Assembly (NCBI GenBank): GCA_965221455.1
Contig: OZ244890.1
Span: forward strand, 415,623-479,622
Source of the DNA: Gammaproteobacteria bacterium
GTDB taxonomy: Bacteria; Pseudomonadota; Gammaproteobacteria; Eutrophobiales; Eutrophobiaceae
Length of the DNA stretch: 64,000 nt
Direction: 5' to 3'
Shown: positions 23,116 to 46,701 of the stretch, piece after piece
Position numbering within the stretch: position 1 is the first letter of the stretch
How the letters are laid out: every line of letters begins with the position of its first letter
The notes under the pieces: model-generated
Told to the model about the DNA's origin: nothing
Database searches by the model: none
Seen by the model: only the letters and a program-made list of their open reading frames with translations
Made by a program: the position numbers and the translations under genes

Positions 23116-23127
23116 TATGCAATTCCT

Positions 23128-24387: not shown

Positions 24388-25577
24388 AATAAATTCCGCT
24401 CCTTTTGATTTAGCCTGACTCGCCAATTTACAGCAGCTTCAACATAATCCGCGATTATAAATAAGTGGGGACATATTATGTAATCGTGTGAAGTATTTAT
24501 ATACCCTGAAAGTAATATTCCTATCGTGTACTCTGCACATCGCTTGATGTGGACAAGGTCAACTATCGGTATGTTCTTGATGCTTAAAAAGCAACCAGAT
24601 ACCAGGCTATTTACAGTTTCCTTTTACCCGTTCTTTTTATGGGTCGAAACGGGGAAATGCGACCACAGTTCTCGGTAACCGCTTTTGATGTCCATCCAAT
24701 TTTCCACCTTACTACCGATCACGGAACATCCTGTTTTCATTTTACAAAGGGCGATATTTTTGCCGATAACAGGTGAAAAGTTGCACTAGCTGTTGTACCA
24801 ATCTGCTCTTTACCAATATAAACACCGTCATCATGAGATACCCACTTCCTCACCCGCAACCGAAAGCTCCAGGCCGGTGAGTTTTATCTATGGATTTTCC
24901 TTATTTCTGACAATGGCCAGAGGCATACGCACCTTAAGCAATACCAGCATAATTGAGAATATAAATCCTTAACACCAAACCATTCATTGAACGTAACGGA
25001 ATATTCGGGCTTCAGCCTAAAGTTTTCCTATGATGGCAAAGTCACGGTATTCAACATTTTCACATAAGTTAGAAGCGGAATCATCCGGATAGACATAGGA
25101 CCAACACTAAAGAATCCAGGCTAAACCCAGTCTTGAGGATAGAGCCACTCCAGCCGACACAGGGACCAACGATGGCATTGATCTTGTTATTTAGTATCAC
25201 AGGTACCCAGCTGAGTACCCGTTCCCCTCGTAACACAGTCATTGGGATCGCAGTTGAAGTGTAGGAAATAAATTATTCGCCGCATAAAAACCCACACAGG
25301 CACCAGCATTATGAGTCCAGGTAACGGTTGCTTCCGGAAACGGGAACTCGCCATCGTTTAGTTTCCGACTCACCTCCAAAAACTTAACCAGTGGGCGAAC
25401 TCTACCCAAGTACTGATTGTGCCATCAAGGACATCACTATGGATCCGCTTCTTCTTCATGAACCCACACATAACCCAAAAAAAACTATTCATTCCAGACC
25501 CCTATATGGTAAACATTAAAGAATACCTGTACCGCAGAAAACTCTAACCTACCCAGAAATCTCCCTTAAAAAAGTTA

Positions 25578-25967
25578 CTAACTGAATTTTTCATACGCTT
25601 TTCTCAAATCAACCATCGGATGATTTGTTGACATCTGAAACTTTACTAACAACTCGCGTGCAATCATATCGCGATCCTGTTGGTTATCAGGCATCTCCAT
25701 ATCTTCCGGCACAGTAACCCAGCCATTATTGTTACGATCAAATACTGCTGCACGACCTTCTTCATAACCCATGTGTACATCTTCCAGCCAATTCAGATCC
25801 TTCCAGCCCATAACCTCGATATATTTTTTAAGGAATGGCGTTATCCTGCCCAGATCAGGCACAAGGTTCACATCATAGCGATAACCGATATGTTGGCCGA
25901 TAATCTTCTCACGCTCCTCATCAAGACCATCACCCTCTAAAAAATGATTAATATCTTTCTTGCTCAT
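25578..25967 (-). CDS. hypothetical protein (129 aa), likely co-transcribed with mgsC-like gene
   Basis: The ORF lies 23 nt downstream of the mgsC-like stop. It has no recognisable motif. Confidence 0.45.
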   Translation of the reverse strand: MSKKDINHFLEGDGLDEEREKIIGQHIGYRYDVNLVPDLGRITPFLKKYIEVMGWKDLNWLEDVHMGYEEGRAAVFDRNNNGWVTVPEDMEMPDNQQDRDMIARELLVKFQMSTNHPMVDLRKAYEKFS

Positions 25968-25990
25968 GATTTTCCCCCAACAAAATTATT

Positions 25991-27337: not shown

Positions 27338-27362
27338 TTTTTGATCCTCTATTCTCTTTCTG

Positions 27363-28208
27363 TTAAAGCACCAGTTTCTTTTCGGTCGGTTCAAGGTTGT
27401 CATAATTCCACAACTGTTTACCGGATTCAATTTTAGTTATATTTTCAACACCGTTGGGTGCTTCCATATCGTATAACGCTAATTTGCCTTTTAGATATTC
27501 AATATCCAGTTCAGTCAATTCACCTTCAACAGCATCGACACCCAGACTTTTGGCCTTACCGGCAAGATAGATTGTACCGTCATACATGGAATCGCCCAGA
27601 TTCTCATCGGCGTCACCGAGGATGATCATGCGACCGCGTTGCATCATAAAACCGGTGAAAGCACCCACACTGTCACCCACAATGATCGTGCCACCCTTCT
27701 GATCGATGCCAACACGTGCACCTGCACGTCCTTTACAAACCAAATCGCCACCACGAATTGCAGCTCCAAAAAGTGAGCCGGCATTTTTTTCGATAACAAG
27801 AGTGCCTGCCATCATGTTTTCTGCGCAGGACCAACCGACCCGACCGTTAATACGTACATTTGGTCCATCAATAAGACCACAGGCAAAATAACCCAGACTG
27901 CCCTGAAAATTTAGATTGAGACGATTAAGAATACCGACACCCAGGGCATGCTTACCCATTGGATTTTTAACTGTGATCGTGCCATAACCCTCTTTCACCA
28001 ATTCACGAATTTTGATGTTGATTTCAGTATTTTCCATATCAGCACAATCAAATTCTGTTGCCTTGTCAAAATCGACTTCATCGGCATAAGCATGAACATA
28101 GTTCTCTTCTTCGGCAGCAGAAAAATACATTTGCTGAGTACGCCCCGCTAACTGCTCCTCGTGCAGACCCATTTCATATGACTTATGATCTTTATTTACG
28201 TTTGCCAT
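27363..28208 (-). CDS. GXGXG-motif glutamate synthase domain-3-like protein (MgsB-like)
   Basis: The GltB C-terminal domain signature is present (GVGILNRLNLNFQGSLGYFACGLIDG...). The start is uncertain: the acidic N-terminal roughly 55 aa has no counterpart in the paralog at 40129, so 28037 is an alternative start. Confidence 0.75.
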   Translation of the reverse strand: MANVNKDHKSYEMGLHEEQLAGRTQQMYFSAAEEENYVHAYADEVDFDKATEFDCADMENTEINIKIRELVKEGYGTITVKNPMGKHALGVGILNRLNLNFQGSLGYFACGLIDGPNVRINGRVGWSCAENMMAGTLVIEKNAGSLFGAAIRGGDLVCKGRAGARVGIDQKGGTIIVGDSVGAFTGFMMQRGRMIILGDADENLGDSMYDGTIYLAGKAKSLGVDAVEGELTELDIEYLKGKLALYDMEAPNGVENITKIESGKQLWNYDNLEPTEKKLVL

Positions 28209-29134
28209 ACTAAAACCTCCCCCTGATATGGATCGAATGTATCAATTTCTCTCGGGAAAATACTGCGAATGGCGATCTCTTCCGATGCTAAACCAACAAA
28301 CTCATCACTTTCATATATCACCATCGGTTTCGCCGACATGGTATCTTTAGCCATACCCAGCTGATCTTTGGTTGCAACCAGGTAGGAAAACACACCGTCC
28401 AGATAGCTAACAGAACTTTGCATGGCTTCTTCCAGACTATCTCCATGGTCTATTCGATCAGCGATGTACACGGCGATTAATTCCGAGTCGCAATTGGACA
28501 TAAAGCGATGTCCCCGACGTTCCAAATCACGACGATGCGTCCAGTAATTAGTCAACTGACCGTTATGCACTACGGATACATCACTAAACGGGTAAGCCCA
28601 ATAAGGATGAGCAGAACGTATGTCAACGTCCGATTCGGTTGCCATACGCGTATGACCAATTGCATGCGTTCCTTCAAAGTCATCCAAACCGTACTGTTCT
28701 GTTACCATCATGGAATCGCCCATGTCTTTAATTAATTCCAAAGCATTACCAACGGACAAAACTTCAACACCATCAACATCCTCTATATAATCAATCAATC
28801 GCCGCAAATCGCCATCAAAACCAAAAACATAACGATGTGCATACGCTGTTGACGCTTTTTGATCCCTGATTTTGGCACCCATCTCCTGCATACGTGCCTC
28901 AACCTGTTCCTCCCGTTCCTTAACCTGTTTGTTAATATCAAAACCGGTATTCATTTCTTCCTGCTCGGCAGTTTTAAACCGCATCACAAAATCATCTGAA
29001 TTTGCATTGCCATAAAGTGCAAACCCGGTTGAATCCGGCCCCCTATGTCTCAAAGCCTGAAGCATGGAAGACATTTCTGCACCAATGTTCGAACTTTGTC
29101 CTCCTTTCCAGATAAGTCCTGCAATACCACACAT
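28196..29134 (-). CDS. class II (Ntn) glutamine amidotransferase (MgsA-like)
   Basis: The N-terminus MCGIAGL has the catalytic Cys2. The body has the GltB domain-1-like/PurF-like fold motifs (THAIGHTRMATES). Confidence 0.8.
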   Translation of the reverse strand: MCGIAGLIWKGGQSSNIGAEMSSMLQALRHRGPDSTGFALYGNANSDDFVMRFKTAEQEEMNTGFDINKQVKEREEQVEARMQEMGAKIRDQKASTAYAHRYVFGFDGDLRRLIDYIEDVDGVEVLSVGNALELIKDMGDSMMVTEQYGLDDFEGTHAIGHTRMATESDVDIRSAHPYWAYPFSDVSVVHNGQLTNYWTHRRDLERRGHRFMSNCDSELIAVYIADRIDHGDSLEEAMQSSVSYLDGVFSYLVATKDQLGMAKDTMSAKPMVIYESDEFVGLASEEIAIRSIFPREIDTFDPYQGEVLVWQT

Positions 29135-29241
29135 AAGCTTTTCCTCAATAAAAAATTAAAAACATTGCTGTATCAGCAAACAGCTACAACGTCCAAACGT
29201 CAGATACCCACCCGAAAAAAATATCGGATGAGCAATTTAAC

Positions 29242-30711
29242 TTACGGCAAACAGTCCATATAGGTCTCTTGATCCCAATCTGTAACAGTCGCGTTATATT
29301 TTTCCCATTCATCACGTTTGTAATGTTCGTACACCTTATACATCTCACCTGGCATGGCAGACTTGATAACTTCGTCATTACCAAGTTCTGCAAGCGCTTC
29401 ACCCAAAGACATCGGTAATTTTTTCACATCCTTGCCTTCTTCCATTGCCAAATAGATATTCCGTTCTTCAGCTTCGCCTGGATCAATCCTGTTCTCAATA
29501 CCATCATCAAAGGCTTTAAGCAGGGCAGAACCCATAAGATATGGATTCACCATTGAATCCACTGAACGGTATTCGAAGCGACCCGGAGCAGAGACACGTA
29601 AGGCACAGGTGCGATTCTGGTAACCCCAATCGGCAAAGATGGGGGCCCAAAAACCGGTATCCCATAGACGACGATAAGAATTAACAGTGGAAGAACCAAT
29701 CGAGGTCAACGCGCCCAGGTGTTTGAGCACGCCACCGATTGAATACAGACCTATAGGACCAGGAGCTCGTTCGTCAATGGAAGGATCCGGCATGAATTTA
29801 TTTTCACCACCTTCAATATAACTAAAGACACCGTCCATACCTGGAAGAGAATCAAAGCCCAGATTATTAACAACATCTGCACCACCTTCCCATAAAGACA
29901 TATTATGATGACAACCTGAAGCTGACACACCCATGAACGGTTTGGACATAAAACAGGCTATCAAACCATCTTCACGTGCGACCTGAGCACATATTTGACG
30001 ATAAGTCGTCAAACGATCTGCGTTACGCAACACGTCATCATATTGTGTATTGAGTTCCAACTGACCCGGGGCATCTTCATGGTCACCCTGAATGATATCA
30101 AGACCCATCTGCTGAGCGTATTCAATCACCTTCATAAAGGTCGGGCGTAATTCTTCAAATTGGTCTATGTGATAGCAGTTAGGTTTGGTCACTCCACCAT
30201 CAGGTTTGCCATCTGCATCACGCTTTAACCACATCATTTCCGGTTCGGTTCCACAACGCATATTTAAACCATGCTTGTCCTGAAATGCCTGATGGATGCG
30301 ACGTAAATTACCTCGACAGTCTGCACTTAAAATGCCACCCGGATTTTCACGTTCTTCACGATTACGAAATAAGGTACAGAACACACGACCAACACGCTTA
30401 TCCCATGGTAATTGACAGAATGTCTCTGGATCAGGAATACCAACCAGTTCCGATGCCTCCGGACCATAACCAATGTAGTCACCATGACGATCTATGAATA
30501 AGTTTGCAGTCGAGCCGTAAACCAATTGAAAACCTTTTTCGGCAAGACGTTCCCAGTGTACAGCAGGGATCCCTTTACCCACTATCCGTCCGGTGACAGA
30601 AATAAATTGATAATAAATATAATCGACGCCTGTCTTTTTTATTTTTTCACTGACCTGTTTCACCAACTCGGCACGACCAGCCGCTTCCACATGTGCTTGA
30701 AGGTCTGTCAT
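29242..30711 (-). CDS. type III glutamine synthetase-like (gamma-glutamylmethylamide synthetase GmaS-like)
   Basis: The 489-aa ORF has a GS catalytic domain (HHNMSLW, NRTCALRVS...RFEYRSVDSMVNPYL). It is positioned directly upstream of the mgsABC-like trio. Confidence 0.75.
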   Translation of the reverse strand: MTDLQAHVEAAGRAELVKQVSEKIKKTGVDYIYYQFISVTGRIVGKGIPAVHWERLAEKGFQLVYGSTANLFIDRHGDYIGYGPEASELVGIPDPETFCQLPWDKRVGRVFCTLFRNREERENPGGILSADCRGNLRRIHQAFQDKHGLNMRCGTEPEMMWLKRDADGKPDGGVTKPNCYHIDQFEELRPTFMKVIEYAQQMGLDIIQGDHEDAPGQLELNTQYDDVLRNADRLTTYRQICAQVAREDGLIACFMSKPFMGVSASGCHHNMSLWEGGADVVNNLGFDSLPGMDGVFSYIEGGENKFMPDPSIDERAPGPIGLYSIGGVLKHLGALTSIGSSTVNSYRRLWDTGFWAPIFADWGYQNRTCALRVSAPGRFEYRSVDSMVNPYLMGSALLKAFDDGIENRIDPGEAEERNIYLAMEEGKDVKKLPMSLGEALAELGNDEVIKSAMPGEMYKVYEHYKRDEWEKYNATVTDWDQETYMDCLP

Positions 30712-30824
30712 TTTTTACCCCTCTCTTAATATATTAAGTTGTCATTAATCTATCGCAATAAAACCGACAGTGGTAATTCATCACTACCTTAAAAAGTCAA
30801 CTGTGACAAATTAATTACTTGTTC

Positions 30825-32168
30825 CTAACTCCAGGGGAATGGACTATTTGACACGGGATGTAACTTGCCTTCTGCATACCTTGAAAACCTGAACGGTTCA
30901 AGAATACTGGAAGTATTACCTGCAATCTCGCTTGCAACGAGTTTGCCTACACCCAACATCTTGTAGCCATGATTGGAATCAGCAATGAAATAACAATTTT
31001 CGCGAAACACATCGAAGACAGGAAAACTATCTGGTGTAAAAGCACCGATACCACCGGAAGCCTCTTTCTTATATACACCTGTTTGTCCCTCGAAACGTTT
31101 CTGACAATGAGCTAATGCCGAACACCACATATGTGCAAACTCATCACCCATAACATAATCCGGTGAATCAGGACCATAAGGATCAACAGCAACAGCATCC
31201 GGATCTGTATCAATCGGATCAGGGGCTGCGCCACCCTGAACACCGCCAAAATTAAAATCAGGCTTATAATAAATGCCCCACATCCTGTCTGTTACCAGCG
31301 TTCCATCCACATCGGAATAAAGCGGAGCATCACTATCGACATGAATCACCGGCGGCATATTGCCATCATTGGTTTTTAGATAATCGGGATTAACACCCAG
31401 AGTGCCTTCTTGCAATGACCAATAGATCCACATATTGACATTGTCGTGCACATTTCCATCCGTGCCTTTAATACTGATCGTTTTTGGCAACTCCAGCATG
31501 TCCCAGAAAATCTTGGCCCATGGACCGACACCAATAACAACATAATCACATTCGATCATCCCCTGGTCCGTTTCAACGGCTGCAATTGCATCAGAGCCAC
31601 CGGCATTTTTAAATCCGGTCACAGTGACACCGGATTGTATCTTTACACCTTCGGCTTCCGCCTTGGCAGCCAAACCATACATGGATTTTCGATTATTTGC
31701 ATAACCACCTCGCTTCTCATGGAGTACAGAAGTAATATCCCTGGCCTGCCAATCATCAAAGAACCCTTTCATATAGTTTGCACTATCATCCACACCTTCA
31801 ATAAAGACTGATTCGTAGGCAATCTCTTTTTGCTGCGCTGCTATTGTCGCCACATCGGCATGCATCGACTCCGGACTGATCTGCATATAACCAACCGCAT
31901 GGTAACTGTATGCTTCCGGATCGGATTCCCATACATCAACACTGTGTGCCATCAATTCACGCATCGCGGGTTGGTAGTAATTATTTCGAACAACACCACA
32001 CGCAATACCTGATGCACCCGCCGCAATTCCGCTCTTGTCAATGACCAGAACATCCTCACCGCCACCTTTACCACTTGCTTTCAATTCAAGAGCAAGATGA
32101 TATGCTGTACTGAGTCCATGAATGCCGGCACCAATAATCAAATACTTGCTGTGTGTTGGGAGTGTCAT
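30825..32168 (-). CDS. FAD-dependent oxidoreductase (DadA/SoxB superfamily)
   Basis: The N-terminal dinucleotide-binding motif YLIIGAGIHGLSTAYHLA is present. It is the first gene of the minus-strand block. Confidence 0.65.
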   Translation of the reverse strand: MTLPTHSKYLIIGAGIHGLSTAYHLALELKASGKGGGEDVLVIDKSGIAAGASGIACGVVRNNYYQPAMRELMAHSVDVWESDPEAYSYHAVGYMQISPESMHADVATIAAQQKEIAYESVFIEGVDDSANYMKGFFDDWQARDITSVLHEKRGGYANNRKSMYGLAAKAEAEGVKIQSGVTVTGFKNAGGSDAIAAVETDQGMIECDYVVIGVGPWAKIFWDMLELPKTISIKGTDGNVHDNVNMWIYWSLQEGTLGVNPDYLKTNDGNMPPVIHVDSDAPLYSDVDGTLVTDRMWGIYYKPDFNFGGVQGGAAPDPIDTDPDAVAVDPYGPDSPDYVMGDEFAHMWCSALAHCQKRFEGQTGVYKKEASGGIGAFTPDSFPVFDVFRENCYFIADSNHGYKMLGVGKLVASEIAGNTSSILEPFRFSRYAEGKLHPVSNSPFPWS

Positions 32169-32382
32169 AAGCTAATTGCTCCGAATAAAAAAGGTGGACA
32201 AATTACCAGGCTTTTTTAAAATTTTAGAATAACGATATCTGCATAGTCGATTCTTATGCAGCAAGAATCAATTCATCCGTAGAGATACCTCTGAAGTGAT
32301 AGATTTGGACATCTTGGCCATCGGATTTATGTGAAGTCCTTTACACCATTCACAATCGCACACCTCTTAAACATGTCGGATT

Positions 32383-32418
32383 TTCAGTTTTTTTGTTTTG
32401 ATAAAAAAACTGAAAAAT
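32383..32418. promoter_or_regulatory. perfect 14-bp inverted repeat (ttttcagttttttt-N8-aaaaaaactgaaaa)
   Basis: This is a direct sequence observation. It lies about 215 nt upstream of the oxidoreductase/gmaS operon start and about 135 nt downstream of the neighbouring minus-strand gene. Confidence 0.3.
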
Positions 32419-32551
32419 ATTTCCATCTAAATCAAGTCTATCCGTTTTTTACCCTGGTACGCCGTATCCCGGATACGGCAATCCTTCGCGAAAAGATTTG
32501 CGCACCTGGACGGTATTGCCTAAATAATGAAGCTTTAATATTTTCAGAAGA

Positions 32552-33043
32552 TTATTTGATCTGTCGCAGCAAATAACCACCGTTTTCAAGGTTTTGTCCC
32601 GCAATGTGAAACTTTGCGGAATCAGGCGTAATTATGGTGTCTACCAGTTCAAAATCAATCGTCTCCTGACTGAAATCAACGACTGTATTAATATTTTTTC
32701 TGGCAAATGCTATTACATTTAACTGACCATTTGCCATTAATTGCCTACGCTGTTTCTGAGTCCAGTCCCACCCGAATGGACAATCCAGCACCTTACCTGC
32801 GCTTTGATGATTAATAATTACCCTTGCTTTTTCCCACTCAAATGGTGTCATGTCCGCCAGGTTTATAATTGTACCGGCATTTTTCCGTATACCTTCACTC
32901 AGCATGGAACGCAAAGAAGCGATATCTGTACAGGACTTGTATTGTTTAAAATAGAAAACAGATAACACGATGATACCTGCGATAACCGCAAAAACGACAC
33001 CCGGTTTACCGGGAATGCTACTTAATGCGCGTCTAATTGACAT
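32552..33043 (-). CDS. hypothetical membrane-anchored protein
   Basis: The ORF has a signal-anchor (MSIRRALSSIPGKPGVVFAVIAGIIVLSVFYF) after the likely start at 33043. The ORF finder extended the frame to 33166. Confidence 0.5.
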   Translation of the reverse strand: MSIRRALSSIPGKPGVVFAVIAGIIVLSVFYFKQYKSCTDIASLRSMLSEGIRKNAGTIINLADMTPFEWEKARVIINHQSAGKVLDCPFGWDWTQKQRRQLMANGQLNVIAFARKNINTVVDFSQETIDFELVDTIITPDSAKFHIAGQNLENGGYLLRQIK

Positions 33044-33214
33044 AGTTAATTTAGAAAGAATAATTTTTCCGGGACAATCAGGTACTGACCAGAACTCTAC
33101 AATAACAACTAAAAAACTTTCCCAAGAAAAAATCCCCTGATCACTGATAGTGAACAGGGGATTCATTTACCACTCACTTCACGTCAGCTATGACGTTTTA
33201 GCTTTGTACCAGGC

Positions 33215-33424
33215 TCAACGATCAAGTGCCTTATTGACCTCTGCCTTGCCCTTGATTTCCTTGATTTCAATATTGCATTCATCGGACTCACTCTTGAGTT
33301 GCCATATATGCCAGGCAAGCCAAAATGCGGTACAAAGTATAACCAACAATCCTTCACTGCCCTGAAATGGATAAAGTGCACCCATCTCCGCCAGCTTGGC
33401 AAAACTTTCAACACCATTTGACAT
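33215..33424 (-). CDS. small hypothetical protein (69 aa) downstream of amt
   Basis: It has one hydrophobic helix (LLVILCTAFWLAWHIW). Its position 35 nt after amt suggests co-transcription. Confidence 0.3.
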   Translation of the reverse strand: MSNGVESFAKLAEMGALYPFQGSEGLLVILCTAFWLAWHIWQLKSESDECNIEIKEIKGKAEVNKALDR

Positions 33425-33458
33425 AACAATGTCCTCCTGCTTGAAAAATTAATCTGAT

Positions 33459-34895
33459 TTACAGTAAGCCAACCTTTTTCGCTTCCGCCCGGACAGCAGC
33501 ATTCAGATCGGCAGCAGCGTTTTCATCTTCAATGTCATAATCCAGATCAAGACCCGCTATCTCAATTTCCTTCGGAATGCGCAGCAGACCCATACCGTTC
33601 AGGATCTTTGCAGCGATCAGACCGGGGATGAAACCCAACACAAAGAACATGATGATTGCGCCGGCAAACTGACCTAGCGGATTAATAGTTGACTCCATAA
33701 ACGGTGAAGCCGGATATCCCCAAAGCATGAAACCCGCAACAACGACACCGTAAAAACCGGCGTAACCATGAACAGCAACAGCACCAACGGCATCATCGAT
33801 CTTGAACGTACGTTCTACCCAATAATGCAACTTGTAAATAATACAAACACCAACCGCACCAATAATCATGGATTGAATCGGATGGTAAAGATCATTACCC
33901 GCTGATGCCGCAATGACGCCTGCAAGTCCGCCGGAGTATGTCCAGAAAGGATCGCCTTTGGACATGAAATATCCAGCCATTAAACCACCTGACAATGACA
34001 TCAAGAAAGCAAAGGTAATACCTGATAAAGATGTGGGACTAAGATAGATATTAGTTGCTGTAAAATAACTACCATCAACATCCAGCATATCAGGACCATA
34101 AAAATCAATTATCGGAACATTACATGCCGCATAAAAACCCCAAAAACCGGTATAGATTAGAAACAGACCGATCGTAACCAACCATGGATTTGTCGGTCGA
34201 ATGTCTCGAGGAGTGCCATCCTCTTTAAATTTACCAATACGCGGTCCAAGCACTATTAACACCGCCAAAGCAAAACCACCCGCAATCGCATGGACGACAC
34301 CGGATGCGTAGGCATCATGATAACCCAGCTTGTGAACCATCCATCCGTCCCAATGCCAGCCCCATGCTGCGTCAGTGATCCACAATACTGAACCGATTAA
34401 CACGGCCAATATCCAGAAAGCACCGGAACGAATCCGTTCAATTACGGCACCTGACACGATTGAACCAGTGGTCCATGAGAACAGCAGGAAGGCTGCCCAG
34501 AATACACCGTTAATGCGTGCCCAGAACCCTGTATCATCAACAGACACGCCTTCCTGAAAAGCGGCACCACCCATATGCGTACCCATTAATTCACTCCAGG
34601 GATAGGCATTCACGGCAGTAACCAAACCACCACCTTCTTGTTGCAAACCTGCCATATTCAGGAAAGGGCCATTTGGCAAGGCAAAATATATCCACCAACC
34701 GAACAGAAAAAAAGCGACCGTGATTAACGGTATAAGCATCGTATTTTTCATTAGTGTATGCAGTTGGTTTTTACGTCTCGATACACCGACTTCATACATA
34801 CAGAACCCAACATGGATCAAAAACATCATTACAACTGTGACCCAATAATAGAATTCAGTGAATATGACGACTAATGATGATATTTCACTATCCAT
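33459..34895 (-). CDS. amt: ammonium/methylammonium transporter (Amt/MEP family)
   Basis: The 478-aa protein has 11 TM segments and Amt signatures (VHAIAGGFALAVLIVLGPRIGKF, twin-His region). Confidence 0.85.
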   Translation of the reverse strand: MDSEISSLVVIFTEFYYWVTVVMMFLIHVGFCMYEVGVSRRKNQLHTLMKNTMLIPLITVAFFLFGWWIYFALPNGPFLNMAGLQQEGGGLVTAVNAYPWSELMGTHMGGAAFQEGVSVDDTGFWARINGVFWAAFLLFSWTTGSIVSGAVIERIRSGAFWILAVLIGSVLWITDAAWGWHWDGWMVHKLGYHDAYASGVVHAIAGGFALAVLIVLGPRIGKFKEDGTPRDIRPTNPWLVTIGLFLIYTGFWGFYAACNVPIIDFYGPDMLDVDGSYFTATNIYLSPTSLSGITFAFLMSLSGGLMAGYFMSKGDPFWTYSGGLAGVIAASAGNDLYHPIQSMIIGAVGVCIIYKLHYWVERTFKIDDAVGAVAVHGYAGFYGVVVAGFMLWGYPASPFMESTINPLGQFAGAIIMFFVLGFIPGLIAAKILNGMGLLRIPKEIEIAGLDLDYDIEDENAAADLNAAVRAEAKKVGLL

Positions 34896-37344: not shown

Positions 37345-38652
37345 TTAACAATCGAGCGTGTGTTGTCTTTCCCACTCGGTAAGCTGATGACAGTACTGGT
37401 TCCATTCGACATTTTTCAGCTTGAGGTAGGCATCAATGAGCTCATCGCCCATCGCTTCACGAACGAACTTACTCTTCTCGGTCAAACGAATCGCATCCAG
37501 TAGATTCAACGGTAGTTTTTTGGCACCGCGAACCTTGTCACCTTCGGTATACATATCCAGGTCGCAACGTTTACCGGGATCGACCTTGTTTTTAACACCT
37601 TGCAAACCACAGGCCAGTAAAGCAGCCGGTGCCAGATATGGATTCATCGCGCCATCAGCAAGACGGAATTCAATACGGTTACCTTCCGGGATACGAACCA
37701 TATTGGTTCGGTTATTGCCCCCCCAGGTAATTGTGTTCGGTGCCCAGGTTGCACCGGAAACCGTAACCGGCGCATTAATACGCTTGTAACTGTTTACGGT
37801 CGAATTGAAAATGGAGGTCAAGGCATCAACGTTCTTGATTACACCACCGAGAAAATTGTAGGCAAGTTTGCTCAGGCCCAATTCACCTTTCGCATCCATA
37901 AACATGTTCTTGTTGCCGGTTTTATCCCACAAAGACGCATTTATATGACAGCCATTTCCAGTCAAATTCACAAATGGCTTGGGCATGAAGGTAGCACGCA
38001 GACCGTGATTTTCTGCAATTTGTTTTACCATATATTTGAAGAAAACGTGGCGATCACAGGTTTTCAAAACGTGATCATATTCCCAGTTCATTTCCCACTG
38101 TCCATTGGCATCTTCATGATCATTTTGATAAGCACCCCAACCAAACTCGACCATGGCATCACAAATTTCAGAAATAACATCATAGCGACGCATCAGACAG
38201 CTCTGATCATAACAGGGCTTTTCCTGGGTATCGCGATCATCATAAATATTCGAACCGTCTTCCTTGATAAGGTGAAATTCGCCTTCAACACCGGTTTTGA
38301 AGGTATATCCCATTTTAGCCGCTTTCTTGATCTGCTGCTTCAGGGCAACTCGGGGAGAAGCAGCGATTGCTTTACCGTCCATGTACAGATCACTGGCAAG
38401 CCAACCGACTTCACGCCGCCACGGAAGAATAATCAGACTGTCCGGATCCGGCACGGCAAACATGTCGGCATCAGCCGGGGTTAAATCCAGCCAGGTGGCA
38501 AAACCTGCAAAACCGGCACCATCTTTTTGCATGCCTTTAATCGCGCCAGCCGGAACCAACTTGGAACGCAGAACACCAAACAAATCAACAAAACTGATCA
38601 GAAAATATTTTAAACCCTTGTCTTTTGCAACTTTTGCCAAATCAGTAGCCAT
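37345..38652 (-). CDS. type III glutamine synthetase-like protein (GmaS-like paralog)
   Basis: The 435-aa ORF has a GS catalytic domain (NGCHINASLW, NRTNMVRIPEGNRIEFRLADGAMNPYL). It is the last gene of the second module. Confidence 0.75.
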   Translation of the reverse strand: MATDLAKVAKDKGLKYFLISFVDLFGVLRSKLVPAGAIKGMQKDGAGFAGFATWLDLTPADADMFAVPDPDSLIILPWRREVGWLASDLYMDGKAIAASPRVALKQQIKKAAKMGYTFKTGVEGEFHLIKEDGSNIYDDRDTQEKPCYDQSCLMRRYDVISEICDAMVEFGWGAYQNDHEDANGQWEMNWEYDHVLKTCDRHVFFKYMVKQIAENHGLRATFMPKPFVNLTGNGCHINASLWDKTGNKNMFMDAKGELGLSKLAYNFLGGVIKNVDALTSIFNSTVNSYKRINAPVTVSGATWAPNTITWGGNNRTNMVRIPEGNRIEFRLADGAMNPYLAPAALLACGLQGVKNKVDPGKRCDLDMYTEGDKVRGAKKLPLNLLDAIRLTEKSKFVREAMGDELIDAYLKLKNVEWNQYCHQLTEWERQHTLDC

Positions 38653-38734: not shown

Positions 38735-40090
38735 TTATTTGTAAGCATCCGCTCCCGGCACCCAATCTGTTCCGGCTAAAGGCACTTTGGCCATTGCTGC
38801 CGCCTCAACCGTTAACGCAACCAGGTCTTCCGGTTCAAGATTATGCAGGTGTGATTTGCCGCAGGCACGTGCTAATGTTTGTGCTTCCAGTGTCATGGTT
38901 TGCAATAAATTTTTAACTCGACGACCACCTAATTCAGGATCAAGTCGTTTTGCCAATTCGGGTTCCTGAGTCGATATTCCCGCAGGACATTGACCTATAT
39001 GGTAAGCATCATAATAGCCTGCCGCTGATCCCAGCTTACGATATTCATCATCATACTCAGGTGAGTTGCAACCCAGGGCATAAAGTGCTGCCATGCCAAT
39101 AGAAACAGCATCGGCACCCAAAGCCATACACTTGGCCACATCGGCGCCATTACGAATACCACCGGAAACAATCAACTGTACCTTACGGTGCATCCCCATT
39201 TCCTGCAATGCTTCAACCGCAATTCTTACCGCAGGTAAAGTGGGGATCCCCACATGTTCTATAAAAATATCCTGAGTTGCGGCGGTACCACCTTGCATAC
39301 CATCAACAACAATTACATCCGCACCCGCCTTACATGCAAGTTGCACATCATAACGGGTACGTGTTGCACCAACCTTTATATAAACAGGTTTTTCCCAATC
39401 TGTTATTTCACGAATTTCACCGATTTTAATTTCCAGATCATCCGGGCCAGTCCAGTCAGGATGACGGCAAGCACTACGTTGATCGATACCCTGCGGCAAG
39501 GTACGCATTTGTGCGACACGATCACTAATCTTATGTCCAAGCAACATACCACCACCGCCTGGCTTGGCACCCTGACCACAAACAATTTCAATGGCGTCGG
39601 CTTTACGCAGATCATCCGGGTTCATGCCATAACGCGAAGGCAACATTTGATAAACAAGTGTTTTGGAAGACTCCCTTTCTTCCGGTGTCATACCACCATC
39701 GCCGGTCGTGGTCGATGTCCCCATTGCAGCGGCACCTTTACCAAGCGCATCCTTTGCTTGTGCCGATAAAGCGCCAAAACTCATACCTGCGATGGTGATG
39801 GGTATATCCAGATGCAAGGGCTTTTTCGCAAAACGGGTACCCAGCGTTACACCGGTATCACATTTTTCACGGTAACCTTCGAGTGGGTAACGCGACATAC
39901 TGGCACCAAGAAACAGCAAATCATCAAAATGTGGTACATGGCGTTTTGCACCACCGCCACGAATACCATAAATGCCTTCTGTTGCAGCACGTTGAATTTC
40001 CCGAATGGTTTGTTTATTCCAGGTATACGATTCCTGTAATACAGACTCTTCATTCATATTGGCTTGCTGTGTAGTGGTTGCATCATTCAT
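38735..40090 (-). CDS. glutamate synthase FMN-binding domain-like protein (MgsC-like paralog)
   Basis: The sequence parallels the mgsC-like gene at 25991 (GIDQRSACRHPDW...LIVSGGIRNGADVAKCMALGADAVSIG). The start at 40090 (MNDATTT) has an RBS gaggaaag. Confidence 0.8.
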   Translation of the reverse strand: MNDATTTQQANMNEESVLQESYTWNKQTIREIQRAATEGIYGIRGGGAKRHVPHFDDLLFLGASMSRYPLEGYREKCDTGVTLGTRFAKKPLHLDIPITIAGMSFGALSAQAKDALGKGAAAMGTSTTTGDGGMTPEERESSKTLVYQMLPSRYGMNPDDLRKADAIEIVCGQGAKPGGGGMLLGHKISDRVAQMRTLPQGIDQRSACRHPDWTGPDDLEIKIGEIREITDWEKPVYIKVGATRTRYDVQLACKAGADVIVVDGMQGGTAATQDIFIEHVGIPTLPAVRIAVEALQEMGMHRKVQLIVSGGIRNGADVAKCMALGADAVSIGMAALYALGCNSPEYDDEYRKLGSAAGYYDAYHIGQCPAGISTQEPELAKRLDPELGGRRVKNLLQTMTLEAQTLARACGKSHLHNLEPEDLVALTVEAAAMAKVPLAGTDWVPGADAYK

Positions 40091-40128
40091 TTTCTTTCCT
40101 CGCCTGACCTCTATCATGACACCTGATT

Positions 40129-40818
40129 TTAATCGTTCTGCAAAACAGCATTGTCGATCCTGAAGTTATACAGGTTTCTCGCCGGACCATAGAGTTTGAA
40201 TTTTTTCGGATCAGCCATAATTGCAGCTTTATCAAGCAATTCCTTTAACTTATCCATTTGTTCTTTTCCCATTACCTTTTCTTCACAATCATGCCCCAGG
40301 CTTTTCACCTTGCCTTGTACATAGATGTGCATCTCAAAGATGGAATCCCCCAAAGCATCACCTGCATCGCCACAGATAACAACATTCCCGGACTGCCCCA
40401 GGAAAGCACACATGTGTCCGACCGAACCGCCGACAACAATATCCACGCCTTTCATGGAAATACCACAACGCGCAGCAGCGTTACCTTCCACAACGATTAA
40501 TCCACCACGACCTGTGGCACCGGTATATTGTGATGAATTACCCTTTACACGCACAACACCAGACATGATATTTTCAGCAAGCCCGGCACCCGCATTACCC
40601 GTAACAGTGATATTCGCATGTTTGTTCATGCCACCAACATAGTGTCCCGCATGACCATCAATCGTAATATCAAGCTCTGCATCAACACCCACCGCAATGT
40701 TATGCTTGCCATTGGGATTTGTTATCTGAAAACCTGACTGACCTTTTTTCCCATCCGCTTTATGTAACAGTGAATTTAGCTCACGAACCTCCTGCTTATC
40801 CAGATCAATTTTACTCAT
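40129..40818 (-). CDS. GXGXG-motif glutamate synthase domain-3-like protein (MgsB-like paralog)
   Basis: The 229-aa ORF contains GGMNKHANITVTGNAGAGLAENIMSGVVRVKGNSSQYTGATGRGGLIVVEGNAAARCG. Confidence 0.8.
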   Translation of the reverse strand: MSKIDLDKQEVRELNSLLHKADGKKGQSGFQITNPNGKHNIAVGVDAELDITIDGHAGHYVGGMNKHANITVTGNAGAGLAENIMSGVVRVKGNSSQYTGATGRGGLIVVEGNAAARCGISMKGVDIVVGGSVGHMCAFLGQSGNVVICGDAGDALGDSIFEMHIYVQGKVKSLGHDCEEKVMGKEQMDKLKELLDKAAIMADPKKFKLYGPARNLYNFRIDNAVLQND

Positions 40819-41101
40819 TATCCCTGGACCTCAGACCGTATTGTTTATTCATGATCACGCCGAGTGCCATCAAAGCCACTTCCAGACGTGAACGTACCCG
40901 TAACTTACGCATTAAATTCTTAACGTGGATTTTTACAGTACCTTCACAAATACCGAGTTCTCCAGCAATCATCTTGTTTGTCATCCCTGTAGTGATCAGT
41001 CTTTGTATTTCCTGCTCTCGTGTAGTCAATGCAAGGACCTTGCCATCACCCGGTTTTTCTTCAGTGCTGTGTTTAATATTAATCAAGGCTGGATTATTCA
41101 T
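40811..41101 (-). CDS. standalone LuxR/GerE-type HTH protein (no receiver domain)
   Basis: The 96-aa protein has an HTH (TTREQEIQRLITTGMTNKMIAGELGICEGTVKIHVKNLMRKLRVRSRLEVALMA) closely resembling the DNA-binding domain of the response regulator at 16395-17048. It is wedged between the mgsA-like and mgsB-like genes with short overlaps. Confidence 0.75.
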   Translation of the reverse strand: MNNPALINIKHSTEEKPGDGKVLALTTREQEIQRLITTGMTNKMIAGELGICEGTVKIHVKNLMRKLRVRSRLEVALMALGVIMNKQYGLRSRDNE

Positions 41102-41107
41102 AAATCA

Positions 41108-42004
41108 TTACCTCTGCCAACTATAGATTGTCGCTGGTTCAGGCTCCCAGATATTTGCATTCTGTACGCCGGGTAAACAGGCCATTGAACGAAATTCAGA
41201 TGCCATTGCAACCCAATCATCTGTTTCCGCAAGAATTGCGGGCTTGGCACCAATCGGATCCCTGACAACGGCAAACCCGTCATACGTACCCACTGCAAAT
41301 GTGTAAAAACCATCCAGGTCTGCAAAACCCGCCTGCAAAGCTTCATCAAGACTTGCTCCATTTTGTAATTTCCATGTCAGATAACCTGCTGCAACTTCAC
41401 TATCGTTATCAGTCTGGAATTCCACACCCTCTCTTTGTAAAGAACGACGTAAACGATTGTGATTGGATAGTGAACCATTATGTACAAGACAGAGATCTTC
41501 CCCGGTTGAAAAAGGATGAGAAGCGGACGTTGTCACTGCGCTTTCGGTTGCCATACGCGTATGTCCCAATGCATGTGTGCCCGACATACCCGCAATGCCA
41601 AATCTATCAATAACGTCTTTTGGTAATCCCTGTTCCTTAAAGATAGTGATGTTGGTTCCTGAACTGGTCATGTACAGATCAGGATGCACATCATGCAACC
41701 AGAGTTGCAGATCTTTTGTATCAGCACTGACCGTCAGCACAGCATGATTACTGTTAAGCTCCAGTTTTGAATTTTCACCAAAGACTTCTTTTAGATCAGA
41801 AGCTAATTTGTCCCATAAATAAACCGGATCGATTGAAAGTACCGTGGTTCGGGTCATACCTTTCTCTACAGCATCACCGTACACAGCTATCCCGGCACTA
41901 TCAGGACCACGCTCGGTCATTTCGACGAGCATTGGTGATAATAAAGCACCCAGTTTATTTTCAAGTTCAGGTGCCTTTATAAAAAGCCCAACAATGCCAC
42001 ACAT
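41108..42004 (-). CDS. class II (Ntn) glutamine amidotransferase (MgsA-like paralog)
   Basis: The start at 42004 gives MCGIVGLF (catalytic Cys2) and is preceded by an RBS gggaggggg. The ORF finder extended the frame to 42022. Confidence 0.8.
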   Translation of the reverse strand: MCGIVGLFIKAPELENKLGALLSPMLVEMTERGPDSAGIAVYGDAVEKGMTRTTVLSIDPVYLWDKLASDLKEVFGENSKLELNSNHAVLTVSADTKDLQLWLHDVHPDLYMTSSGTNITIFKEQGLPKDVIDRFGIAGMSGTHALGHTRMATESAVTTSASHPFSTGEDLCLVHNGSLSNHNRLRRSLQREGVEFQTDNDSEVAAGYLTWKLQNGASLDEALQAGFADLDGFYTFAVGTYDGFAVVRDPIGAKPAILAETDDWVAMASEFRSMACLPGVQNANIWEPEPATIYSWQR

Positions 42005-42316
42005 AACCCCCCTCCCTTGCAAATATATAAATATAATTAGTTACTATAGTATCTCATCAGCTACAGCCAATAAATCCTTTCAATAATATATTATTCCTTA
42101 TATGAATAAATTTACGGACTTAGGTACTAATTTTAACCTGATTTCACGATACATTCGGTAACAGATATACTCGGTTAACGTTGTAAAACATAATACGAAA
42201 AGGGATAACATAATGTCAACTTTTAAGTAATAAAATATTACTATAAAGAATATTTTATTACGCACGAAAGACTTTTTATCGATAATTGAAATTGAATGTT
42301 CTCACCGGTCAGGCCA

Positions 42317-42970
42317 TTAATCATCGTTTCCAGCACGATAAATACAGGCAATCATTCGGATAGGCACTTGTATTAATTCCTCAGGGCCATGCGGCGCGTC
42401 CGAATCAAAAAAAAGTGAATCGCCAGGTAACATCAAGTAGGTATCGTTACCGTGTCGATAAACAACCTCTCCTTCCAACATATAGACGAACTCAATCCCG
42501 TTATGTTGAAATAAAGGAAAAACTTCGGACTCATCAGTTAAAGTGATCAGATAAGGCTCCATAGAGATCAACTTGCCAATATTATGACCCAAAAGTTGAT
42601 ATTGATGACCGGCGCGAGTGCCACGCCGCTCAATCAGTAAACCTTCTCCGGATTTTACAAAGCTGCAATCACGCTGTTCCTCATACTTACGAAACAATGA
42701 AGTCACCGGAACATTCAAGGCGCTGGCTAACGCATAGAGTGTCCCTAACGATGGTGCGGTTACACCTCTTTCAATCTTGGACAACATCCCTTGCGATAAA
42801 CCCGCCTGCTTGGCAAGCTCATCAACTGTCATTTTAAGTTGTACACGGAAAGTACGGATTTGCGAACCGACCGCAATTTCCAGTTGCTTTTCACCTTTAT
42901 CAGCAGTCACTGAATCAGGTAAATTGCTTATCTTCTCATCTGCATATTCAGATCCGGTGTTATTGGTCAT
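42317..42970 (-). CDS. XRE-family HTH plus cupin-domain transcriptional regulator (PuuR-like architecture)
   Basis: An HTH_XRE (MTVDELAKQAGLSQGMLSKIERG) precedes a C-terminal cupin barrel (GIEFVYMLEGEVVYRHGNDTYLMLPGDSLFFDSDAPHG). Confidence 0.75.
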   Translation of the reverse strand: MTNNTGSEYADEKISNLPDSVTADKGEKQLEIAVGSQIRTFRVQLKMTVDELAKQAGLSQGMLSKIERGVTAPSLGTLYALASALNVPVTSLFRKYEEQRDCSFVKSGEGLLIERRGTRAGHQYQLLGHNIGKLISMEPYLITLTDESEVFPLFQHNGIEFVYMLEGEVVYRHGNDTYLMLPGDSLFFDSDAPHGPEELIQVPIRMIACIYRAGNDD

Positions 42971-43082: not shown

Positions 43083-43128
43083 TTTACATTGTATGGCGTT
43101 TACATTGTATGGCGTTTACACTGCATTC
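43083..43128. promoter_or_regulatory. tandem 16-bp direct repeat (tttacattgtatggcg x2 plus a partial third) in a divergent promoter region
   Basis: The repeat is seen directly in the sequence. It lies between the minus-strand XRE-cupin gene (start 42970) and the plus-strand GATase1 gene (start 43156). Confidence 0.45.
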
Positions 43129-43155
43129 TTCATCTTAACAGGTCATGAAAACACT

Positions 43156-43881
43156 ATGAAAGCACTTGTGTTTCAACATATCGATATTGAACACCCCGGA
43201 ATCTTTCGAGACTTTATGCAGGAAGATGATATTGGCTGGGATACTGTTGAACTGGACCAGGGAGAGACTATCCCGGATTTCAGTCATTACGATGCATTGA
43301 TTGTGATGGGAGGACCGATGGATGTTTGGGAGGAAAATAAACATCCCTGGCTAGTCAGGGAAAAGCTCGCTATTCGACAAGCAATTGTTAACTTAAAGTT
43401 ACCTTTCCTGGGCTTTTGTCTTGGGCATCAACTGATGGCTGATGCACTTGGTGGCAAGGTTGAAAAAATGACTCAACCGGAAGTCGGTATTCTGGATATC
43501 GAACTCACTACAGACGGTGAAGCTTCCAGTCTATTTTCAGGCTCACGCAAAAAAATTAAAAGTTTGCAATGGCATGGGGCTGCGGTTACCGAAGCACCAC
43601 CTGACAGTCTTGTTCTTGCACAGTCTCCTGTTTGCGCGATACAAGCACTGCAATATGGTGAATCTGCCTTTAGTATGCAATGTCATATTGAACTGATTGA
43701 TTCCACTGTCTCGGATTGGGGAGGAATACCCGAGTATAAACAATCTCTCGAAAAAACATTGGGACCGGGTTCTTTGGATAAATTAAATAGTGCAGCTGAA
43801 AAATACATGTCCGACTTTAATCAAACAGCCGGATTGATATACAATAATTTTATCGACCAACTGAAAAAACGAACCGCATGA
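43156..43881 (+). CDS. class I glutamine amidotransferase-like protein
   Basis: The GATase1 nucleophile elbow LPFLGFCLGHQL is present. The start is taken as MKALVFQHIDIEHPG; the upstream extension to 43093 runs through the repeats. Confidence 0.7.
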   Translation: MKALVFQHIDIEHPGIFRDFMQEDDIGWDTVELDQGETIPDFSHYDALIVMGGPMDVWEENKHPWLVREKLAIRQAIVNLKLPFLGFCLGHQLMADALGGKVEKMTQPEVGILDIELTTDGEASSLFSGSRKKIKSLQWHGAAVTEAPPDSLVLAQSPVCAIQALQYGESAFSMQCHIELIDSTVSDWGGIPEYKQSLEKTLGPGSLDKLNSAAEKYMSDFNQTAGLIYNNFIDQLKKRTA

Positions 43882-44063
43882 AACCAGTCACGGCAAATTT
43901 AATATTATTTATTGTTATCGTGCTTTGTGGTTATGTCGTCGCAAACAGTACCGGAATATATAAAATTTCAGGTTTTGTTCTGGGTATACTTGCAACTTCA
44001 ACGACTATTTACATCCATTGGAAAAGCAGAAATAAAAATAATATTTAGTCGGCGTGTTTAATA

Positions 44064-45251: not shown

Positions 45252-45690
45252 GCTGTTGCACAGGCATTCTCCTTTCCAGTTTCCTTTGCGGGTGCGGTGA
45301 CTTTCCAGCTTCCTGTGCGTTTATGGCTTTGATCACTGCTTGTTGTCCGGTTCATGGCATACAAATGCAAGATCACTTTCACACGTTCTGCATAGCATTC
45401 GCACACCACCTGCAGCAAATCCATGATGTGTCCTCGTTGTAACCGCAGTCTCCAACGCTGTGCCATCATCATTAGTGCACCCATCGCACTTATATATTTA
45501 TGGGTATGCGTACAGCCGTTTGTGTAGTGAGTGAATCGCCCCTGATTTTGTAGACAGCAACGGTTCAGTCTATATGAGTAAAGGAGGTGTGCATGAATAA
45601 CAAAATCTATAAAGAATTTTCCGCACCAAAAGCGCTCCCCCTGCCAGGGGGAGTCCTCCGCAGGGGGTGGGGGCATATGAGTAAATCATC

Positions 45691-45894
45691 TGAACATCGT
45701 CATTCCCGCGAAAAATATGTCCTCGCAGAAGTTGTGTATTTTTTTGCGTCTTATAGATTCCCGCTTGCGCGGGAATGACGGGGTAGTGGTGCAGGAAGCG
45801 CGGAGCTTGAAAAGCAACCACCCCACCCCTGCGGGGCACCCCTCCTTGACAAGGAGGGGAGTGAGTTAGCCGACAAAGTTGAGTGACAGTAAAA
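45691..45894. repeat. 204-bp direct repeat, copy 1 (contains internal 13-bp inverted repeat cgtcattcccgcg...cgcgggaatgacg and the palindrome cccctccttgacaaggagggg)
   Basis: It is about 95% identical to 46010-46213. Confidence 0.85.
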
Positions 45895-45995: not shown

Positions 45996-46009
45996 CTTAA
46001 TAAAATGAC

Positions 46010-46213
46010 TGAACATCGTCATTCCCGCGAAAAATATGTCCTCGCAGAAGTTGTGTATTTTTTTGCGTCTTATAGATTCCCGCTTGCGCGGGAATGACGG
46101 GGTAGTGGTGCAGAAAGCGCGGAGCTTGAAAAACAACCACCCCGCCCCTGCGGGGCACCCCTCCTTGACAAGGAGGGGAGTTAAGTAGCTGGCAAAGTTG
46201 AGTGACAGTAAAA
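46010..46213. repeat. 204-bp direct repeat, copy 2
   Basis: It is about 95% identical to 45691-45894, with a few point differences (g/a at three sites and the tail gtgagttagccgac versus gttaagtagctggc). Confidence 0.85.
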
Positions 46214-46500
46214 GCATTTCCCGCCCTAAAAGCTCTCCCCCTGCCAAGGGGGAGTGTAGTGGTCTAATAAATCCGTACCAGGTGATAGGTGATGAAATCA
46301 CATACTCATGGAGGTACGGCTCATGACAAAAGAACGAAAACACTTTACACCTGAGTTTAAACAAGATGCTGCCTTGTCTGGTAGTAGACCAGGACTACAG
46401 CATCAAAGAAGCCTGTCCAGTTGAGCAATTAAGCACGCACTATCGTCAAAGTGACGGCGATGATTGTCAGTAGCCAGCAGGGCTTATCGCAACAGTCACC

Positions 46501-46529: not shown

Positions 46530-46701
46530 GTGCTGATTGCAACTCGTCTGAATTGCTTCGCTAAAGCTCTCCCCCTGCCAAGGGGGAGGGGGTTGCAGGG
46601 GGGAGGGAATGACGACTTACAACATCACCACAAACAATACAGACATTACCGCAACCAGCTTCCAGCATTCCATGTGACCGCCTGAAAGCATCAACCCCTG
46701 C

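Follow-up and report, generated by a model that had tools for sequence, protein, structure and literature searches.

The window analysed here, a 64,000-nt stretch of contig OZ244890.1 (positions 415,623 to 479,622; assembly GCA_965221455.1) from a gammaproteobacterium of the family Eutrophobiaceae, contains at 40811–41101 (minus strand) a short, 'S-type' gene for a 96-aa protein which consists of a NarL/LuxR-type helix–turn–helix (HTH) domain and has no receiver. The gene lies between the mgsA- and mgsB-like genes of a predicted methylamine utilisation operon. We show that it is a real gene under purifying selection, with conserved synteny. Its origin by receiver loss from a NarL-type response regulator is well supported by comparison of the related sequences, and so is a role of the predicted product as a DNA-binding regulator. 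Concerning its function, we propose, at about an even chance, that the protein would be an expression-gated relay from the mgs–gmaS operon to NarL-type sites elsewhere, which may be shared with the full-length regulator of the same genomic island (16395–17048, plus strand).

Conserved domain and predicted fold

The protein starts with ATG and, based on the Pfam scan, contains GerE (PF00196) as its sole domain (residues 24–79; 71.2 bits versus a cut-off of 23.5; E-value 5e-20); neither a Response_reg match nor an autoinducer-binding domain was found. In the AlphaFold 2 (AF2) model, helices are located at residues 27–37, 42–49, 53–67 and 72–79 with a pLDDT above 90, and the two tails (residues 1–21 and 88–96) are disordered. 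This is the four-helix arrangement of LuxR/GerE-type domains, in which helices 2 and 3 make up the HTH and a dimerisation helix is C-terminal. The best Foldseek matches are the C-terminal domains of LiaR, NarL and VraR (TM-score to target 0.8–0.87) and GerE, and the best NCBIfam match is NarL. The initial annotation, made from the DNA of the window, described a stand-alone LuxR/NarL-type HTH gene among mgs genes, and the GerE-only composition and the coupled gene junctions (see below) bear this out. Two other traits of the sequence are a conserved MNNxSFxHT motif at the start of the disordered N-terminal tail (residues 1–9) and Cys52 within GICEGTVK, which is kept in most, not all, members of the short family.

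In NarL, Lys188, Val189 and Lys192 make the base contacts, Lys174 and Arg178 contact the RNA polymerase alpha subunit at its C-terminal domain (αCTD), and in the apo form the unphosphorylated receiver covers helices α9 and α10 (PMC10853779). The three base-reading residues correspond to K57, I58 and K61 of the 96-aa protein; all 34 short homologues have K57 and K61, and I58 shows at least 90% conservation. The αCTD-contact residue K174 corresponds to K43, which is also invariant in the short family. From the kept equivalents of K188, V189 and K192 we infer that the protein would bind DNA in a sequence-specific manner.

These residues also bear on a reading in which the protein acts through protein–protein contacts, either as a heterodimer with a full-length NarL-type regulator via α10, as RcsA, GadE and BglJ do with RcsB, or by binding MgsABC. 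RcsB is known to have partners of the FixJ/NarL type in which the receiver is missing or degenerate, and both the conserved motif in the disordered tail and the position of the gene between genes for enzyme subunits would fit such a role. The DNA-contact residues, however, are strongly constrained, which pure protein binding would not require, and we consider this reading very unlikely.

Conservation and selection

A search of 5.8 billion proteins returned the 34 short homologues, all of 80–98 aa and 54–71% identical overall, whose invariant residues cluster in the HTH. In all 13 short-form loci (the window, L001–L004, L083–L087 and L090/L091) the gene lies between those for GATase_6 and GXGXG proteins. 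Comparison with seven orthologues gives a ratio of nonsynonymous to synonymous substitution rates (dN/dS) of about 0.2; within the HTH, dN amounts to 0.06–0.23 and dS is above 1.1 or saturated, which places the ratio there well below the overall value. The short family is old, with saturated synonymous sites and members that share only 54–71% identity.

The short form is also rare. At 50% clustering, it appears as only four representatives in a profile search against 1.84 billion; multi-repeat GerE proteins made up most of the matches, and the search was informative only for the rarity of the short clusters and for the intermediate forms. In a pattern-limited scan, three of 185,579 species-representative genomes had a match in mgs context, all of them metagenome-assembled genomes of Gammaproteobacteria (L003 and L004 with the short form, L005 with a 152-aa form).

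A frameshifted response regulator can be ruled out: a receiver remnant was sought in every frame of 40700–42100 and none was found, and the short orthologues are conserved. This was the check which the initial annotation had named for its own view that the gene is not a disrupted regulator, and that view stands.

Operon organisation and gene junctions

The gene upstream, mgsA (41108–42004, open reading frame to 42022), encodes a class-II glutamine amidotransferase subunit (Pfam GATase_6/7); translation most likely begins at the ATG at 42004 (MCGIVGL), and a MCGIVG start is kept in 11 loci. Downstream are mgsB (40129–40818, GXGXG), mgsC (38735–40117, an FMN glutamate-synthase-type subunit, Glu_synthase 3e-89) and gmaS (37345–38652, gamma-glutamylmethylamide synthetase or type III glutamine synthetase), all on the minus strand. 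The GmaS-type protein scores 645 bits against TIGR03105, above the membership cut-off of 470, as well as 607 bits against the solved GmaS structure (PDB 7CQL) and 349 bits against 9QUR, which was deposited as a glutamate–methylamine ligase. All three split glutamate-synthase-like subunits (GATase_6, GXGXG and Glu_synthase) are present. Based on these scores and subunits, the locus reads as an mgsABC–gmaS operon of the N-methylglutamate (NMG) pathway with one extra gene, and its predicted order is mgsA-X-mgsB-mgsC-gmaS, for methylamine utilisation. Canonical operons are mgsABC–gmaS, for example in Paracoccus aminophilus (PMC4543880). They agree with the window in the four enzyme genes and their order, but mgsA and mgsB are adjacent, as they are also in a second set of the window (27363–29134), whereas here a regulator gene is inserted. 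Full-text literature searches combining LuxR with mgsA, gmaS or N-methylglutamate returned no account of mgsABC with a regulator gene in it.

At the mgsA–luxR junction (41102–41118, minus strand) a GAGG Shine–Dalgarno motif (41111–41114) sits within the last mgsA codons and is followed by the TAA stop (41108–41110) and a 6-nt spacer. At the downstream junction the luxR stop and the mgsB start overlap by 8 nt (ATGAGTAA, 40811–40818, minus strand). The upstream arrangement, either TGGCAGAGG, stop, 6 nt and ATG or an ATGA overlap, is kept across the orthologous loci, and the 4-nt ATGA overlap is present in L001, L003, L085 and L086. An overlap with both flanking genes had been claimed; it is confirmed for mgsB, whereas on the mgsA side there is the 6-nt spacer. 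In view of the ATGA overlaps of the orthologues, the proposed tight translational coupling still holds. Two loci contain further, lineage-specific insertions within the operon: a 59-aa open reading frame lies between the short regulator gene and mgsB in L002 (8267–8446), and in L083 mgsC and gmaS are separated by a GFA (glutathione-dependent formaldehyde-activating) gene (10457–10840).

Origin by receiver loss

The profile search yielded intermediate proteins of 129–183 aa which contain the short-family HTH and an N-terminal extension. One of them, P0117 (183 aa), is 39% identical to the NarL-type regulator of the window in an alignment which begins at receiver residue 55 and runs to the end (E-value 3e-29). 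Its N-terminal 62 residues alone match receiver residues 55–97 in 47 of 51 regulators and also give a weak, correctly placed Pfam Response_reg match, and the extensions of the other intermediates are joined to P0117 by transitive similarity. Based on these matches, the intermediates are regulators with a truncated, degenerate receiver. The 152-aa forms of L005 and L089 occupy the exact mgsA/mgsB slot. In L088 (7048–8471), a 156-aa truncated-receiver LuxR gene follows the XRE gene, and mgsA, mgsB, mgsC and gmaS are absent from the 16-kb locus; since the regulator gene is kept there without the enzyme genes, its role would be independent of them. The median HTH identity is 81% among short forms, 62% between short and intermediate forms, 66% (maximum 84%) between intermediates and regulators, and 57% between short forms and regulators. 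Of 200 neighbour-joining (NJ) bootstraps, 157 recover the short family as monophyletic.

With MgsB as the query, metagenomes yielded 37 loci, two of which contain the short gene. Another 12 (MgsB identity 78–84%) lack it and have a 45–129-nt mgsA–mgsB spacer with a hairpin and the same mgsB AATCTGAGGTC Shine–Dalgarno motif, and in the 23 more distant loci (49–61%) mgsA and mgsB are adjacent, with gaps of −13 to +23 nt. In the NJ tree of MgsA and MgsB, all gene-bearing operons group with the spacer operons in one clade (200/200), and the operons with intermediate forms are sister to the short and spacer operons (200/200 on each side). The spacer lineages are nested in the short-form clade (monophyly 0/200; main spacer clade 193/200). 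The simplest reading of these sequences would be one acquisition, followed by reduction of the receiver and by at least two independent losses. The regulator-less spacers are found in L092–L101, L104 and L123 (e.g. L092 2911–3000). In several of them (e.g. L092 and L123) a hairpin such as GGGACTGTTT...AAACAGTCC precedes a T-rich stretch, and it may serve in attenuation or mRNA processing.

The progressive reduction and the repeated complete loss are what would be expected of a remnant in decay, itself without any regulatory role and kept mainly for translational coupling of mgsA and mgsB, and the loss lineages do retain only the spacer with the same mgsB Shine–Dalgarno motif. Against this are the dN/dS of about 0.2, with a much lower value in the HTH, the constraint on the DNA-contact residues in the 34 homologues (K57 and K61 invariant, I58 at least 90% conserved) and the retention of the gene in L088 in a locus with no enzyme genes. 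We therefore regard a mere remnant as highly improbable.

Relationship to the response regulator of the island

A three-gene module at 14751–19178 (plus strand) comprises a HisKA_3 histidine kinase (14751–16379), the full-length NarL-type response regulator (16395–17048) and a PAS–GGDEF–EAL protein (17055–19178). The regulator scores 272 bits against the NCBIfam NarL model (cut-off 250), a name which is probably misleading in this case. The kinase had been called NarX-like; this applies to its catalytic core only, as a NarX sensor domain is not detected by Pfam and the scores against the NarQ/NarX models fall far short of the cut-offs. The same module is found in L088 (13681–16471), L127 (8742–12825) and L128 (8804–12842). 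It adjoins methylated-amine catabolic genes in four lineages, and the copy of the window abuts sox/mgd-like genes. The module is a candidate amine-responsive two-component system coupled to cyclic di-GMP (c-di-GMP).

The likeness between the HTH domains of the 96-aa protein and of this regulator, which had been noticed in the initial annotation, is real: a pairwise alignment gives 62.5% identity over 56 aa, BLASTP gives 51% over 74 aa (E-value 4e-22), the recognition helices are nearly identical (GTVKIHVKNLMRKL vs GTVKVHVKNMLRKL), and the motif quoted at the time, GI[TC]EGTVK[VI]HVKN[ML][LM]RKL..SRLE.AL.A, is correct. The two genes are paralogs at the level of the NarL-type family, to which the receiver fragments of the intermediates also point. 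A specific or recent paralogy is not supported, because the local regulator, when 51 regulators are ranked by the identity of their HTH to that of the short family, comes only 11th–14th and groups with this family in only 8 of 200 bootstraps; the same ranking and bootstraps rule out a recent duplication of the local gene. The nearest full-length relatives of the intermediates are P0186 and P0187 (79–84% identity in the HTH). Both are encoded in modules of a HisKA_3 kinase, a regulator and a PAS–GGDEF–EAL protein, which adjoin soxBDAG/mgd-like, GCV_T, class-I amidotransferase, amtB, Gcw_chp, electron transfer flavoprotein (ETF) and trimethylamine dehydrogenase (TMADH)-like genes. The suggested link between the short gene and a two-component system therefore stands at the family level, through the regulators of methylated-amine islands, with the local copy not the closest relative.

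Promoter region and candidate operators

The best sigma-70-like promoter of the operon is TTGACA-18-TATTAT at 42190–42219 (minus strand), and a TTGAC(A/G) box with matching spacing is kept in the group-A loci. A palindrome, AGTAATA-N3-TATTACT, lies just upstream of the −35 box (42226–42242, minus strand), and two more, AATAATATATTATT and TATTC-N7-GAATA, lie in the 5′ untranslated region (5′-UTR; 42082–42109, minus strand). The AGTAATA-type palindrome occurs twice in the window, both times at the mgs promoter region. An XRE-family gene (42317–42970, minus strand), encoding an HTH and cupin regulator which is PuuR-like (Pfam HTH_3 and Cupin_2; the PuuR match is below the cut-off), adjoins mgsA here and in all related loci. 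The XRE genes upstream of mgsA fall into two classes, one in L004, L083, L084 and L087 and the other in the window, L001, L002, L005 and L085.

The palindromes switch with the type of this gene. Loci with a co-oriented XRE (about 78% identical) have TATTC-N7-GAATA and AT-rich palindromes, whereas those with a divergent XRE (35–43% identical) have two TTGCAT-N3-ATGCAA palindromes instead; TATTC-N7-GAATA itself is common to the window, L001, L005 and L085 and absent from loci with the other XRE type. Since the recognition helix of the LuxR-type protein is constant across these loci, the sites are best assigned to the XRE–cupin protein, as its probable operators, and this protein is the probable primary regulator of the operon. 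A search by phylogenetic footprinting for a LuxR site in the mgs promoter was unsuccessful, as the sole conserved palindromes are split by XRE type. No common motif was found in the mgsC–gmaS intergenic regions, and NarL heptamers (TACYYMT) are absent upstream of mgs, xre and gmaS. The target of the LuxR-type protein is probably outside the mgs promoter.

Autoregulation of the mgs–gmaS promoter, as positive or negative feedback and possibly together with the XRE–cupin protein, would suit a gene that lies inside the operon to be controlled, and there are several palindromes around the promoter and in the 5′-UTR. No palindrome, however, is common to both promoter groups despite the invariant LuxR recognition helix, the palindromes change exactly with the XRE–cupin type (78% vs 35–43% identity), and the promoter has no NarL-type heptamer. 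We consider autoregulation quite unlikely.

A search for inverted repeats shared by the upstream regions of the mgs and the kinase operons had been suggested in the initial annotation. It found none beyond shuffled controls, and a common operator was rejected, since the two upstream regions share four 12–14-mers against a shuffle mean of 2.3–3.7, which is no excess over shuffles. Upstream of the kinase gene itself there is a 7-2-7 palindrome, TACCACT-TA-AGTGATA (14611–14626, plus strand), which is a candidate NarL-type site and a lead only. The corresponding motif, TACNNCT-N2-AGNNGTA, was derived from the kinase promoters of L127 (8544–8559) and L128 (8630–8645), where it is exact; with one mismatch it is found in the window at 14611–14626 and upstream of the second amine cluster (32286–32301). 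The positions of these sites are apt, although their statistical weight is low.

A close paralog whose operators are those of the 16395–17048 regulator, for which it competes as an antagonist or surrogate that needs no phosphorylation, and which thereby ties the amine operon to this one two-component system, would account for the 62.5% identity of the HTH domains and the nearly identical recognition helices. The position of the module beside methylated-amine genes in four lineages and the 7-2-7 palindromes upstream of the kinase gene and the second amine cluster are also consistent with it. On the other side, the local regulator ranks 11th–14th of 51 and groups with the short family in 8 of 200 bootstraps, the two upstream regions share no motif beyond shuffles, the divergence is ancient, and the tryptophan of α10 is not kept in the short family. 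Competition of this kind is, in our view, unlikely.

Comparison with known systems

The protein resembles the C-terminal domain of Escherichia coli NarL (PDB 1JE8/1ZG5) in its four-helix LuxR-type HTH and in K/I/K at the base-contact positions. Descent from the NarL clade is indicated by the NCBIfam match and by the intermediates, which align to both receiver and HTH. It differs from NarL/FixJ regulators in that it has no receiver, no phospho-acceptor Asp and no adjacent kinase (the nearest, at 14751–16379, is about 24 kb away, and the immediate neighbours are mgsA and mgsB), and the α10 tryptophan is replaced. With no receiver, Asp or adjacent kinase, the protein cannot be a two-component response regulator. 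Quorum-sensing LuxR proteins and LuxR solos are defined by an autoinducer-binding domain, which the Pfam scan did not find in the 96-aa protein.

GerE of Bacillus subtilis (74 aa, PDB 1FSE) is also a stand-alone single HTH without a sensor domain, and its activity is set by expression. The sequence relation is distant (36 bits, E-value 6e-8), the window protein being much closer to the NarL type. Unlike gerE, the 96-aa gene lies inside an enzyme operon, and its origin by receiver loss can be traced.

SecR/ScyR of Alphaproteobacteria, including the SecR cascade of Aminobacter, are phosphorylation-independent NarL/FixJ-type regulators, induced by methylamine, which activate downstream one-carbon (C1) genes, and XRE-family regulators are associated with the methylamine clusters in these systems (PMC13199381). 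The receiver fold of SecR is complete, though atypical, and SecR is a member of the RcsB clade that lies beside serine-cycle genes in Alphaproteobacteria, whereas the 96-aa protein has no receiver, belongs to the NarL clade and occupies the mgsA/mgsB slot in Gammaproteobacteria. It is thus not of the SecR type, and the SecR cascade would be a functional analogue in another class rather than a relative by membership.

Proposed role

The relay which we propose is as follows. An ancestor within this gammaproteobacterial lineage would have acquired, between mgsA and mgsB, a copy of a NarL-type regulator of the kind that accompanies methylated-amine islands. The receiver of this copy would then have decayed, as in the intermediates of 143–183 aa, and finally vanished, giving the 80–98-aa form. 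As the receiver of apo-NarL blocks the recognition and dimerisation helices, a receiver-less protein should bind DNA constitutively, and the liberated output domain would need no phosphorylation. Its activity would be set by amount alone, i.e. by transcription of the mgsA-X-mgsBC-gmaS operon; the operon itself would be controlled by the adjacent XRE–cupin regulator through the palindromes around the promoter, and translation of the short gene would be coupled to that of mgsA and mgsB. The protein would in this way signal 'methylamine operon on' to NarL-type sites elsewhere. Candidate targets are the sites of the kinase–regulator pair at the NMG dehydrogenase-like genes, the second amine cluster and the transport genes. 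That the protein binds constitutively, how the relay works and which sites it reaches are all inferred.

Several observations weigh against this proposal. The position of R178 is occupied by Arg in most family members but by Gly in the window protein, and the short family has M, I or L in place of the α10 tryptophan, which the regulators and intermediates keep; these changes suggest that dimerisation or activation may differ from those of NarL. The motif searches identified no binding site for the 96-aa protein. The 7-2-7 motif is absent from the mgs promoter, and at up to one mismatch it occurs at 13 sites against 7.4 ± 2.6 in shuffles, with its founding sites included, which is no significant enrichment once the two defining sites are discounted. 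Also, at least two losses in nested lineages which keep the operon imply that the gene is dispensable there.

Other features of the window

A divergent gene for a class-I glutamine amidotransferase/Peptidase_C26-like protein (43093–43881, plus strand) is a conserved neighbour, kept in L001, L003, L004, L083–L086, L088 and L089. A small hydrophobic open reading frame of 51–60 aa is found directly 3′ of it in the window (43878–44048, plus strand), L001 (4992–5174), L083 (5361–5516), L084 (4985–5149), L088 (3897–4052) and L089 (3820–3975). Other neighbours in the window and related loci are dmm-like, folD, amtB and sox/mgd-like genes. The Rfam and tRNA scans, in which a riboswitch or known RNA was sought in the long 5′-UTR, gave no Rfam match and no tRNA in the window.

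A second, paralogous set of amine genes occupies 19234–34895 (minus strand). It contains genes for an ammonium-transporter-family protein (33459–34895), a DAO oxidoreductase (30825–32168), a divergent 489-aa glutamine synthetase (GS)-like protein (29242–30711), GATase_6 (28196–29134), GXGXG (27363–28208) and Glu_synthase (25991–27430) proteins, and soxB/D/A/G-like (mgdABCD-like) proteins (19234–24426), all on the minus strand. No regulator gene is located between its A and B subunit genes. The GS-like protein scores 180 bits against 7CQL, compared with 607 for the gmaS product, and its substrate may therefore differ.

Upstream of folD there is a 205-nt direct repeat (45690–45894 and 46009–46213, 96% identical), and shorter GC-rich repeat units are found at 45611–45651, 46211–46251 and 46545–46585. 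These look like interspersed repeat elements and create spurious open reading frames. About 2.4 kb separate an rve-type integrase gene (9201–10049) from a pyruvate-kinase fragment (6160–6762) which is limited to the barrel end and the C-terminal domain, and a nitrite/sulfite-reductase-type gene (7291–8997) lies between the two; the fragment could be a disrupted gene.

Biological significance

Stand-alone LuxR/GerE-type regulators are already known. The gene of the window is a lineage-restricted member of this group with an unusually clear origin, and it reveals no new mechanism. Regulation of the N-methylglutamate pathway is, on the other hand, poorly understood, and according to a recent detailed study the primary methylamine sensor is still unidentified (PMC13199381). 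The locus offers three regulatory candidates from little-studied aquatic Gammaproteobacteria, namely the XRE–cupin regulator with recognisable operators, the kinase–regulator–GGDEF/EAL module and the receiver-less derivative.

It is doubtful whether the short protein acts as a permanently active, receiver-deleted version of the response regulator of a putative methylated-amine-sensing two-component system (HisKA_3 kinase, NarL-type regulator and PAS–GGDEF–EAL protein) and occupies, or co-occupies, the 7-2-7 sites of that regulator. If it did, a protein made stoichiometrically with MgsABC and GmaS would tie the early flux of methylamine assimilation to the regulon of the later steps (the NMG dehydrogenase-like genes, the second amine cluster and the ammonium transporter), and possibly to c-di-GMP signalling, and the result would be a two-input circuit, in which phosphorylation is combined with the gene dosage of a liberated output domain. 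The short family and its relatives form a natural reduction series, from full length through a truncated receiver to the HTH only and then to loss, which informs how single-domain LuxR/GerE-type regulators arise.

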